From a virus, in IMG/VR virus record IMGVR_UViG_3300020478_000004, positions 44,526-108,525 of that record: a stretch of DNA of 64,000 nt; one strand, 5' to 3'. Positions 43,648 to 45,797 of this stretch are shown here, piece after piece (position 1 is the stretch's first letter; every line of letters begins with the position of its first letter). The notes beneath the pieces are model-generated. The model ran no database searches. It saw only the letters and a program-made list of their open reading frames with translations, and had not been told where the DNA came from. The translations under genes and the position numbers were made by a program.

Positions 43648-43653
43648 TAAATA
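43648..43653 (+). promoter_or_regulatory. Late-type TAAATA promoter for the leader/aaRS-like/tRNA unit
   Basis: GATAAATACT 10 nt before ATG 43664, the same geometry as at 4984, 9552 and 11153. Confidence 0.6.
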
Positions 43654-43663
43654 CTACTTTAGT

Positions 43664-43936
43664 ATGCCGAGAGAACTCTTAAATACTAAAAACCACAAAA
43701 CACCAACACATACCATCTCCAATACACAATATCAAGACGTAGAATTAGTCAAACTTATGACTGAAGCATTAACGAATAAGAACAAGTATACTGTTCGTGT
43801 AGAAGGTTGGAATATAGAGTACAAACGGCATTGGACCTCTAGCATTAACAGTATCACTAATTGGGACAATTTAAACTTTAATTACAACCAAAAAGCTGAT
43901 ACATTTGTCTTTCAACATAGGAGCAACGGACAATGA
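43664..43936 (+). CDS. Asn-rich 90-aa ORF (candidate leader peptide or partner subunit)
   Basis: 13 Asn in 90 aa, 6 of them in NSITNWDNLNFNYN; ATGA overlap with the next gene. Confidence 0.6.
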   Translation: MPRELLNTKNHKTPTHTISNTQYQDVELVKLMTEALTNKNKYTVRVEGWNIEYKRHWTSSINSITNWDNLNFNYNQKADTFVFQHRSNGQ

Positions 43937-44847
43937 CCCAACTAATTAACCCACAAGCCTTTACCGAAACTGTCGGCCGTTTACGGTCGTTTTTTTTGGA
44001 CAAGGGATTTTACGAAGTACACACTCAAAACAGATTAAGCATACTAGCCGCTTGTGAAGACCCGTTTAACGTAGCAACATACAATTACGCAGACCAAGTA
44101 TGGCCTTTACCCCAAACAGGCCAGATGTGGCTTGAACACGAATTATTAAGTAGCCCCTCTTCGAAGGGGTTTTTTTGTGTCTCCACATCCTATAGGCAGG
44201 AACCAAATGCAATACCAGGAAGACATGATATCATCTTTCCAATGTTTGAATTTGAGATGCCTGGTGATATAGATGACCTTAAGAAGATGGAGTATGAATT
44301 ATGTGAACACTTGGGCTTTAAAAAGCCTACTGAAAAAACTTATGCTGAATGGCAAAAGCATTACGGTCATGCTGAAGACTATGAAATGACTGCGGAAGAA
44401 GAAACCAAGATGCACCAAGAGTTTGGTACAACCATGATAACAGACTTTCCTGAAATGACATCACCTTTTTGGAACATGAGTAGAAATGATGATGGCAAAA
44501 CTGCAAAGAAGATAGATGTTATACTAGGTGGTATGGAAACAATAGGAAGTGCGGAACGTTCATGCGATGTAGAAATGATGCGTGATACATTCCATAGCAT
44601 TACAGACGGAGAGTACAGTAAGCTACTTTATAAACTGTTCAGTCAGGAACGTGTTGAAGCAGAGCTAGAAAAGTTTCTAGAGTTTGACTTCTTTCCGAGA
44701 GTTGGTGGCGGAATAGGATTAACTCGTTTGTTAAGAGCAGTTGAAGATTATAAAAGTAAAAAAGTAAAAACTGATGATGACCGTGAAATTTTATATAATA
44801 AACGCCGAGAGATGAATAGGCAAAGCGTACACGGAATACTTCAATAA
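43933..44847 (+). CDS. Class IIb (Asn/Asp) aminoacyl-tRNA synthetase paralog, catalytic domain only
   Basis: Motif 1 RSFFLDKGFYEVHT at residue ~18, motif 2 SYRQE...RH..FPMFEFE, ETIGSAER, motif 3 GGGIGLTRL; no N-terminal OB anticodon-binding domain. Confidence 0.9.
   Translation: MTQLINPQAFTETVGRLRSFFLDKGFYEVHTQNRLSILAACEDPFNVATYNYADQVWPLPQTGQMWLEHELLSSPSSKGFFCVSTSYRQEPNAIPGRHDIIFPMFEFEMPGDIDDLKKMEYELCEHLGFKKPTEKTYAEWQKHYGHAEDYEMTAEEETKMHQEFGTTMITDFPEMTSPFWNMSRNDDGKTAKKIDVILGGMETIGSAERSCDVEMMRDTFHSITDGEYSKLLYKLFSQERVEAELEKFLEFDFFPRVGGGIGLTRLLRAVEDYKSKKVKTDDDREILYNKRREMNRQSVHGILQ
43974..43997 (+). terminator. Intragenic terminator-like hairpin 1
   Basis: CGGCCG-TTTA-CGGTCG followed by T8. Confidence 0.5.
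44152..44176 (+). terminator. Intragenic terminator-like hairpin 2
   Basis: AGCCCCT-CTTCGA-AGGGGTT followed by T run (7 T in total). Confidence 0.55.
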
Positions 44848-44853
44848 GGCTTT

Positions 44854-44940
44854 TCCGGGGTGGTGGAAACGGTAGACACGATAGCCTGTTTAGCTATTGC
44901 TTGGGAGAGCGTGAAGGTTCGAATCCTTCCCCCGGAGCCA
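44854..44940 (+). tRNA. tRNA-Asn(GUU) with long variable arm (type II body), encoded CCA
   Basis: Acceptor TCCGGGG/CCCCGGA, G73, CCA; D arm GTG-GAAACGGTAGA-CAC; anticodon stem ATAGC/GCTAT with loop CT-GTT-TA; V arm GCTT-GGGA-GAGC; T arm GAAGG-TTCGAAT-CCTTC. Confidence 0.92.
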
Positions 44941-45097
44941 CTGGTCTTGTAAGATGATCTAGTGTGATTGTTTGATGTAGAGGGATCATAGTAGTATCTC
45001 CCTCTGAATTAATATTTTTAGGCTTTGCTTGATATTTAAGTTTTTTAGCCAACTTCTTTTGTTGTCTCATTATATGTCTATCAGAATGTTTAGCCAT
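44894..45097 (-). CDS. Small basic protein whose 3' end runs antisense into the tRNA
   Basis: Overlaps the stop of the upstream - gene; the last ~15 codons are the tRNA complement. Confidence 0.45.
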   Translation of the reverse strand: MAKHSDRHIMRQQKKLAKKLKYQAKPKNINSEGDTTMIPLHQTITLDHLTRPVAPGEGFEPSRSPKQ

Positions 45098-45797
45098 CAC
45101 TTGTCTCTATATAAGCCCATACCTTTTTAAGTAATTTTTTTATTACAGGATGGTTAGTATCAAAATCAAATGCCGCAAAATATCCAAATAAGTTAGGTGA
45201 TAATAATTTTTCTTTGTCTCTATATTGTGCAGTTTTTCCTGCCATACGTAATAAAGTAAGAGCAGTTTCTTTATCTGTTTTACGTACTAATTCACTAGCA
45301 ATATTTTTAGCATACGCTTCTATTTCATCGTCATTACCTAAGTATTCTCTAGTTCGTCTTATTTTATCAGATAATCCTTTTTTAGGTTTAAACTCACGTT
45401 GCTTTTTAAACCCTCTACCTCGATATTGGCTTTGATGAATTAACTCGTGTTCTAATACATCAATGATTCTATTCTTAATATTTTCAACACCTTCAGGACT
45501 AAAAGCAATTGTTTTATCTTCTTTAGAAAATATTAATTCAATTTCAAAATGTTCAAAGCCTTCTTGGTCATCAATAGGATCATATGAAGCATTCATATTC
45601 ATATCTCCTACTTCTACATTTTTAGAACGTAGAACATTTACTTCGTCAACTCCAATAGGTTTGGTATCAATTTCTAATTTTTTAGCAATATCTTTAAGGG
45701 GGATTTCTTCACCTGATGCTATAAATGTAAGGAACGGAGCAAGAGACTTTTCAATCTCTTTACGACTTGCAGGTTTTGTAAACTCCATTATTAACAT
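45090..45797 (-). CDS. Putative zinc metallopeptidase-like protein
   Basis: HELIH (HExxH) followed by YL...DEIEAYA. Confidence 0.65.
   Translation of the reverse strand: MLIMEFTKPASRKEIEKSLAPFLTFIASGEEIPLKDIAKKLEIDTKPIGVDEVNVLRSKNVEVGDMNMNASYDPIDDQEGFEHFEIELIFSKEDKTIAFSPEGVENIKNRIIDVLEHELIHQSQYRGRGFKKQREFKPKKGLSDKIRRTREYLGNDDEIEAYAKNIASELVRKTDKETALTLLRMAGKTAQYRDKEKLLSPNLFGYFAAFDFDTNHPVIKKLLKKVWAYIETSDG

Follow-up and report, generated by a model that had tools for sequence, protein, structure and literature searches.

An asparaginyl-tRNA synthetase-like enzyme linked to pyrimidine genes in cells and to an adjoining atypical tRNA(GUU) gene in marine phages

What might the catalytic core of an asparaginyl-tRNA synthetase (AsnRS) do in a phage when it has no anticodon-binding domain and is followed at once by an atypical tRNA gene with a GUU anticodon? 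Such a pair lies in a 64,000-nucleotide stretch of DNA from a marine cyanobacterial virus (positions 44,526 to 108,525 of IMG/VR record IMGVR_UViG_3300020478_000004), here called the window, whose own numbering is used throughout. An original prediction, made from the letters of the window, proposed that the two genes form an orthogonal charging pair in which the variable arm of the tRNA replaces anticodon recognition. The analysis reported here leads us to lean, by a modest measure, toward another reading of the whole: the enzyme would be an AsnRS-derived, carbamoyl-phosphate-independent dihydroorotate-forming enzyme, and the phage tRNA its captive partner, possibly as an asparagine carrier.

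The enzyme is a 304-aa open reading frame (ORF) on the plus strand (43933..44847), identified as a stand-alone class IIb AsnRS-like catalytic core by Pfam, by its AlphaFold2 fold, and by the context and fusions of its cellular relatives. PF00152, the core family of the class II synthetases for Asp, Lys and Asn, matched the protein with 65 bits over profile positions 28-293 of 308. Motifs 1-3 of the Asp/Lys/Asn type are all present, the protein begins about 12 residues ahead of the motif 1 helix, and Pfam found no oligonucleotide-binding (OB) fold anticodon domain (no PF01336 match). An AlphaFold2 model, built from an alignment of 36 diverse relatives, is a class IIb catalytic domain with a mean predicted local distance difference test (pLDDT) score of 93. 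The top fold matches of the model were AsnRS catalytic domains (human 8TC8/8H53, P. horikoshii 1X54, Brugia 2XGT/2XTI) at 17-20% identity, and eukaryotic and archaeal aspartyl-tRNA synthetase (AspRS) catalytic domains were also among the best. The class IIb core lacking an OB-fold domain, as originally predicted, was therefore borne out. None of the curated NCBIfam models reached its cut-off: the asnS equivalogs TIGR00457 and NF003037 scored 31.3 bits against 342.6 and 30.6 against 414, the non-discriminating aspS model 33 against 353, the EpmA/GenX model TIGR00462 20.4 against 286.9, and NF005053, an archaeal-type asparagine synthetase A model of the AS-AR set NF005052-5, 12.5 against 322. 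The basic C-terminal extension that had been pointed out (residues ~272-304; 44746..44844, plus strand) is present, with pLDDT of 52-65, but it is peculiar to this phage and is not a family feature, because relatives are mostly 273-276 aa long.

An exhaustive search showed that the enzyme belongs to a discrete family of 686 representative clusters with a typical length of 270-300 aa. When the family profile was compared with the PDB, AsnRS was best (E = 4e-14), followed by archaeal and eukaryotic AspRS and then by LysRS and EpmA. The pocket motifs are of the AsnRS type, with QTGQMxLE corresponding to QSSQLYLE, SYRxE to SYRAE, and ExE taking the place of the DxE of AspRS. Family members also retain the flipping-loop Glu, the arginines of motifs 2 and 3 and the GE...R strand, and are, as judged from sequence, intact adenylate-forming enzymes whose pocket resembles that for asparagine. 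A species-representative genome collection held 76 loci at 44-80% identity to the phage enzyme, of which the few above ~62% lie on contigs of marine phage type that had been binned into genome assemblies. Homologs that are truly cellular show 44-61% identity and belong to Bacteroidota, Alphaproteobacteria, Myxococcota, Chlamydiota, candidate phyla radiation (CPR) bacteria, DPANN archaea and Dependentiae, and part of them are located on megabase contigs. The marine phage enzymes were monophyletic in a quick maximum-likelihood tree and nested, on short stems, among cellular clades linked to pyr genes. Full-length AsnRS was found in three of the five carrier genomes tested (G002, G003 and G004), and the idea that the family is the housekeeping AsnRS of its cellular carriers was accordingly rejected.

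The genes that accompany the cellular enzymes are those of pyrimidine synthesis. Two family representatives are fusions, one of PyrD to the enzyme and the other of the enzyme to PyrF. In loci of four phyla (Bacteroidota, Alphaproteobacteria, Myxococcota and Chlamydiota) the genes next to the enzyme are pyrD and a pyrE-pyrF fusion, and compact operons of the enzyme gene with pyrD, pyrE and pyrF are frequent, Chlamydiota included. Gene presence was then counted with model cut-offs in 48 enzyme-bearing genomes, many of which are incomplete assemblies. PyrB was over its cut-off in only 3 of these carriers, PyrC likewise in 3, and CarB in 9, which leaves 45 of the 48 lacking PyrB, 45 lacking PyrC and 38 or 39 lacking CarB; a PyrD match was found in 28 and was strong in about 24, which cover all of the larger genomes but one. 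The best PyrC-like matches of the carriers were dihydropyrimidinase or allantoinase by motif. The named control genomes, by comparison, had PyrB and CarB in 14 of 14 cases and PyrC of the same type in 11. The order containing G002 allows the comparison to be made among related genomes. Two of its 61 genomes have the enzyme, and neither of these carriers yielded PyrB, which 54 of the 59 enzyme-less genomes possess; PyrC was present in all four of the enzyme-less genomes tested, while it was over the cut-off in neither carrier. For cellular members, then, both linkage or fusion to pyr genes and a complementary pattern of presence were found, as would be expected of a stand-in enzyme. In a separate observation on the same order, five genomes of 4-6 Mb (G018, G022, G049, G061 and G065) had neither PyrB at E<=1e-50 nor the enzyme family at E<=1e-20; these genomes may be incomplete, may be auxotrophic, or may use another bypass.

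We infer from sequence, gene context and gene presence that the cellular family probably substitutes for the CarAB, PyrB and PyrC branch of the pathway and feeds PyrD, using ATP to convert an asparagine-type substrate to dihydroorotate or to its immediate precursor. In formal terms dihydroorotate is a cyclic ureide of asparagine, and as such it suits an AsnRS-type pocket. One possible route, drawn on purely chemical grounds, would have Asn-AMP react with CO2 to give an N-carboxyanhydride, after which the side-chain amide would attack C2 and the ring would close. A simpler displacement, in which the enzyme would replace PyrC alone by an ATP-driven cyclisation of carbamoyl-aspartate, was also considered and is weakened both by the additional loss of PyrB and CarB and by the retention of the flipping-loop Glu, which binds a free alpha-amino group. 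By extension, the phage member would have the same pyrimidine role, as is suggested by its 44-61% identity to the cellular enzymes and by its nested position in the tree. Carried by marine T4-like cyanophages, the gene would boost the nucleotide supply for DNA replication.

In the phages, the enzyme has a second partner. The Prochlorococcus phages P-SSM2, P-SSM5 and P-SSM7 encode homologs that are 64-66% identical to the enzyme and are annotated "tRNA ligase", and each is followed within ~10 nt by an 87-89-nt tRNA(GUU). The enzyme was found on at least 592 IMG/VR contigs and in more than 8000 clusters of a protein collection, mostly at 273-276 aa. About 76 of the best 80 IMG/VR loci have the same tRNA 4-10 nt past the stop codon, or rarely up to ~130 nt; ARAGORN misses or mislabels the tRNA forms with long variable arms. 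Seen from the side of the tRNA, the enzyme lay directly upstream in 85 of 85 genuine tRNA-pattern matches that had sufficient upstream DNA. Two further pattern matches that had no enzyme beside them (L181 and L187) were rejected as chance matches in coding DNA. The linkage on which the original prediction depended is thus general, the tRNA lying 4-10 nt from the enzyme in ~95% of marine phage loci. The enzyme occurs without the tRNA in a few phage loci (L028, L029 and L056), in two huge phages, LR756501 and LR756508, which have no tRNA within 5 kb of the enzyme, and at every locus that is truly cellular. The sole cellular locus with any Asn tRNA nearby is L159, where an ordinary 73-nt tRNA-Asn(GTT) (L159:4027-4099) lies ~230 nt downstream of a divergent homolog of 44% identity. 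Several marine phage contigs also have, 1-2 kb from the enzyme, tmRNA-like genes that were asterisk-flagged by ARAGORN and have tags ending in ...ALAA (L009:1101-1483, L021:1097-1478, L065:2480-2895, L074:1018-1382 and L079:1635-1970).

The tRNA of the window is 87 nt long (44854..44940, plus strand) and starts 6 nt past the enzyme's stop codon. ARAGORN assigned it as tRNA-Asn GTT, and its score with the Rfam tRNA model (RF00005) was 51.4 bits against a gathering score of 29. The description of a complete tRNA with a GUU anticodon and an encoded CCA just past the stop was accurate, as was that of Asn-type U1:A72 and G73 joined to a Leu-like D loop. The D arm is Leu-type in having a 3-bp stem and an extra D-loop base, and the best blastn matches of the tRNA among phages are tRNA-Leu genes. 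The variable region (44898..44913, plus strand), as placed by the alignment of relatives, has the short stem that was predicted but measures 16 nt, not 15. The anticodon loop, CUGUUUA, puts U at position 37, a feature that had gone unnoticed. We then compared 49 distinct relative sequences. U1, A72, G73 and the anticodon G34-U35-U36 (44888..44890, plus strand) are invariant in all 49, and the cloverleaf comprises 24 pairs, 17 of which show compensatory changes. Position 37 may be U, A or C, position 33 may be U, C or G, and the variable region spans from ~12 to ~38 nt. In the long variable arms (to ~38 nt; for example L006:3838-3938 and L058:1669-1769) a shared loop, YGCAA(A/T)nTATTTA, often sits on a stem of 7-10 bp, and the sequence of these arms is conserved while their length varies.

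These tRNAs, then, have the GUU anticodon, U1:A72 and G73 that are canonical for bacterial tRNA-Asn, and do not keep the equally canonical U33, purine (t6A) at 37, variable loop of 4-5 nt and standard D arm. The anticodon and G73 are elements read by bacterial AspRS or AsnRS; U33 and purine 37 are elements required on the ribosome and are fixed in decoding tRNAs. The window tRNA is the sole tRNA of the 108.5-kb record, whose G+C content is 35.6%, and Asn accounts for 6% of the phage codons. In another phage contig, G110, the odd tRNA(GUU) follows the enzyme (G110:56953-57049), and the contig also has a canonical 76-nt tRNA-Asn with a CUGUUAA loop (U33, A37) and a short variable loop, located within a phage tRNA cluster (L289:1663-1738, minus strand, equivalent to G110 ~101265-101337). 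Because G110 carries this canonical tRNA-Asn as well, decoding alone does not account for the odd tRNA; its strict dependence on the enzyme adds to the case for a partner role, as carrier, donor or enzyme substrate. The U1-A72 pair is an identity element for bacterial GatCAB (PMC1635274, PMC2330236). In the phages the gene would have gained a captive, co-transcribed tRNA(GUU) that retains marks read in the host by the enzymes of Asp/Asn charging and amidation (GUU, G73 and U1:A72) and lacks those for good decoding (U33 and purine 37). Since the charging and amidation marks are retained and the decoding marks lost, the tRNA is probably the enzyme's asparagine carrier or donor and not a translation tRNA; its loading would fall to host enzymes or to the phage enzyme.

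The enzyme ORF itself has two further elements on the plus strand. One is a terminator-like hairpin followed by T8 at codons ~14-22 (43974..43997), kept across the marine phage clade, and the other a terminator-like hairpin followed by T7 at codons ~74-82 (44152..44178), which shows compensatory codon choices. Of 180 marine phage loci, 167 have both elements, as against 4 of 76 cellular homologs, and the stems are preserved through synonymous as well as amino-acid changes. Hairpins followed by T7 number only four in the whole 108.5-kb record, and two of these are inside the enzyme ORF. In the UTP-sensitive attenuators of enterobacterial pyrBI and pyrE, a hairpin and a U tract lie inside a translated region. 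Here, too, a terminator hairpin and U tract were found in the translated region of what would be a pyrimidine gene, and by this analogy the two hairpins probably give translation-coupled, UTP-sensitive attenuation. These parts can be joined in a single proposal: a captive, non-decoding tRNA would be loaded with Asn, which either the phage enzyme would attach or a host non-discriminating AspRS (ND-AspRS) and GatCAB would make on the tRNA; the phage enzyme would then close Asn and CO2 to dihydroorotate; and two UTP-sensing attenuators would throttle the process. Taken as a whole, with every part required, this joint proposal is tentative and on the unlikely side.

A number of observations weigh against a pyrimidine role, or against parts of the scheme. 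About 20 carriers with small genomes (CPR, DPANN, Dependentiae and some Chlamydiota) have no PyrD at E<=1e-15; these may reflect a second role of the family, or the genomes may be incomplete. The genomes G074, G080 and G090 have a canonical pyrB in addition to the enzyme, and in G074 and G090 pyrC is over its cut-off as well. Because about 20 carriers are without a PyrD match and three keep PyrB, the pyrimidine rule has exceptions. No pyrE-type phosphoribosyltransferase was found in the phage record, which is 31% complete and in which pyrD and pyrF were not searched for. The extra D-loop base of the tRNA resembles one that blocks GatCAB on tRNA-Asp (PMC1635274) and so speaks against loading by the host route. 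Charging by the enzyme itself would likewise be in keeping with the encoded CCA and with a tRNA that depends strictly on the enzyme. Full-text searches of the literature gave nothing on the family or its function, and the only mention retrieved was as "tRNA ligase" (T4-GC 194), a sporadic gene of P-SSM2 and P-SSM7 (PMC3037559).

Would these observations be better explained if the enzyme were a true synthetase after all? The supposed orthogonal pair would consist of an anticodon-blind, minimal AsnRS that charges only its co-encoded tRNA(GUU), by way of the acceptor end and/or the variable arm, and so supplies private Asn-tRNA for AAY codons. That the tRNA was never found without the enzyme, that its CCA is encoded and its U1:A72 and G73 invariant, and that Asn makes up the 6% of the phage codons given above, all suit such a pair, as do the AsnRS-type pocket and the intact adenylation motifs; an anticodon that is invariant despite the missing anticodon domain would fit selection by the ribosome. 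A pyrimidine at 37 and a non-U at 33 are poor for decoding, however, and one phage, G110, has a canonical tRNA-Asn in addition. No such tRNA accompanies the cellular homologs, whose identity is 44-61%, and most of the carriers tested have a full-length AsnRS; moreover, it is with pyrimidine genes that the family is associated, and the marine phage enzymes branch from inside that family. Nor is the length of the variable arm conserved. Since it runs from ~12 to ~38 nt, the arm cannot be a length-specific identity element, and the claim that it replaces anticodon recognition finds no support. What stands of the orthogonal pair is a tight, conserved module whose enzyme has an AsnRS-type pocket and no anticodon domain; a dedicated AsnRS that reads the variable arm is unsupported, and we consider private charging improbable.

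At the other extreme, the tRNA-like gene might take no part in amino-acid chemistry and act in cis, as a signal for 3' end protection or processing or as a regulatory decoy, while the enzyme uses free substrates. The position of the tRNA, which closes a plus-strand unit 4-10 nt past the stop codon and faces a convergent minus-strand gene, suits a cis-acting element, the decoding positions are relaxed, and the enzyme does without the tRNA in cells and in the phage loci L028, L029 and L056. A stabiliser, on the other hand, needs no invariant GUU, U1:A72 and G73 and no encoded CCA, a full cloverleaf with 17 covarying pairs would be superfluous to it, and chance would hardly place an Asn anticodon next to an AsnRS-like enzyme; to this explanation, too, we give little credence. 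Alternatively, the enzyme could be an ammonia-dependent asparagine synthetase of the AS-AR type, with the paired tRNA-Asn raising the supply of both Asn and Asn-tRNA. The two share an architecture, an AsnRS core without an anticodon domain, and weak matches to asparagine synthetase A models were found in 12 of 36 family members. AsnA (TIGR00669) had no match in the five carrier genomes searched, and the carriers G003 and G004 have AsnRS with neither AsnA nor AsnB; G001 and G002, though, already possess AsnB. The score with the AS-AR model is far below its cut-off (12.5 versus 322 bits), and AS-AR structures are absent among the profile and fold matches listed. The PyrD and PyrF fusions, the four-gene operons and the missing PyrB, PyrC and CarB would also go unexplained, so that an asparagine synthetase seems very unlikely. 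The fallback offered in the original prediction, that the enzyme makes free Asn or amidates Asp-tRNA, likewise leaves the pyrimidine linkage without an explanation.

Next to the enzyme gene are two other ORFs. Upstream, a 90-aa, Asn-rich ORF with 13 Asn codons (43664..43936, plus strand) ends in a stop codon that overlaps the enzyme's start codon (ATGA). Pfam gave no family for it, and tblastn found homologs only in the loci L012, L013 and L064. The possibility that it is a split OB-fold anticodon domain or a conserved partner was rejected, given the lack of a Pfam OB match and the mere three homologous loci. Downstream, a convergent 235-aa ORF (45090-45797, minus strand) has a weak match, at E = 0.04, to SprT-like/zinc-peptidase proteins with HExxH.

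If the dihydroorotate-forming reading is correct, the universal textbook pathway of pyrimidine synthesis has an undescribed bypass of carbamoyl phosphate, aspartate transcarbamoylase and dihydroorotase, shared by Bacteroidota, Proteobacteria, Chlamydiota and candidate phyla with highly abundant viruses of the ocean. The reactions known for synthetase-like enzymes would grow by one, and the genome-based prediction of pyrimidine auxotrophy would change. The joint proposal, if true, would mean a new metabolic reaction and the first tRNA cofactor in nucleotide synthesis, and the phage tRNA would allow a direct test of whether a tRNA has been recruited into metabolism as a partner. Experiments are feasible, since the module is present in the cultured phages P-SSM2, P-SSM5 and P-SSM7, which infect cultured Prochlorococcus.

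Comparison with known systems shows where the enzyme and its tRNA are familiar and where they would be new. AsnRS (8H53/8TC8, 1X54, 2XGT/2XTI) shares with the phage enzyme its fold (query-normalised template modelling, or TM, score of ~0.7), motifs 1-3, the flipping-loop Glu and the pocket motifs. The phage enzyme differs in lacking the OB-fold anticodon domain, in its low identity of 17-20% and in its score of 31 bits against 342.6; furthermore, the family coexists with true AsnRS in cells and has a pyrimidine context rather than one of translation. AS-AR and E. coli AsnA are synthetase-like, amide-forming enzymes, class II cores without anticodon binding that have been put to metabolic use. 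The phage enzyme is likewise a stand-alone class II core and would use adenylate chemistry on an Asp/Asn-type substrate, but it does not reach their family models, and its context and fusions point to the supply of dihydroorotate, not of free Asn; to our knowledge, neither AS-AR nor AsnA has a tRNA partner. HisZ, EpmA (GenX) and YadB (GluQRS) are also truncated synthetase cores with new work. HisZ, however, has lost the catalytic residues that the phage enzyme family keeps, EpmA is distant by its model (20 bits against a cut-off of 287), and we know of no dedicated tRNA gene for any of the three. The E. coli pyrBI and pyrE leaders resemble the phage gene in having a terminator hairpin and U tract in a translated region, upstream of or within a pyrimidine gene; the phage has two such elements, placed within the enzyme's own ORF and not in a leader peptide. 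Finally, the route by ND-AspRS and GatCAB is a precedent for a tRNA that serves as a cofactor in amino-acid synthesis, and the phage tRNA keeps the elements read there (GUU, G73 and U1-A72), although its body is Leu-type, its variable arm long and its D loop larger by one base, a GatCAB anti-determinant on tRNA-Asp; to spend the product on nucleotide synthesis would be a novelty.

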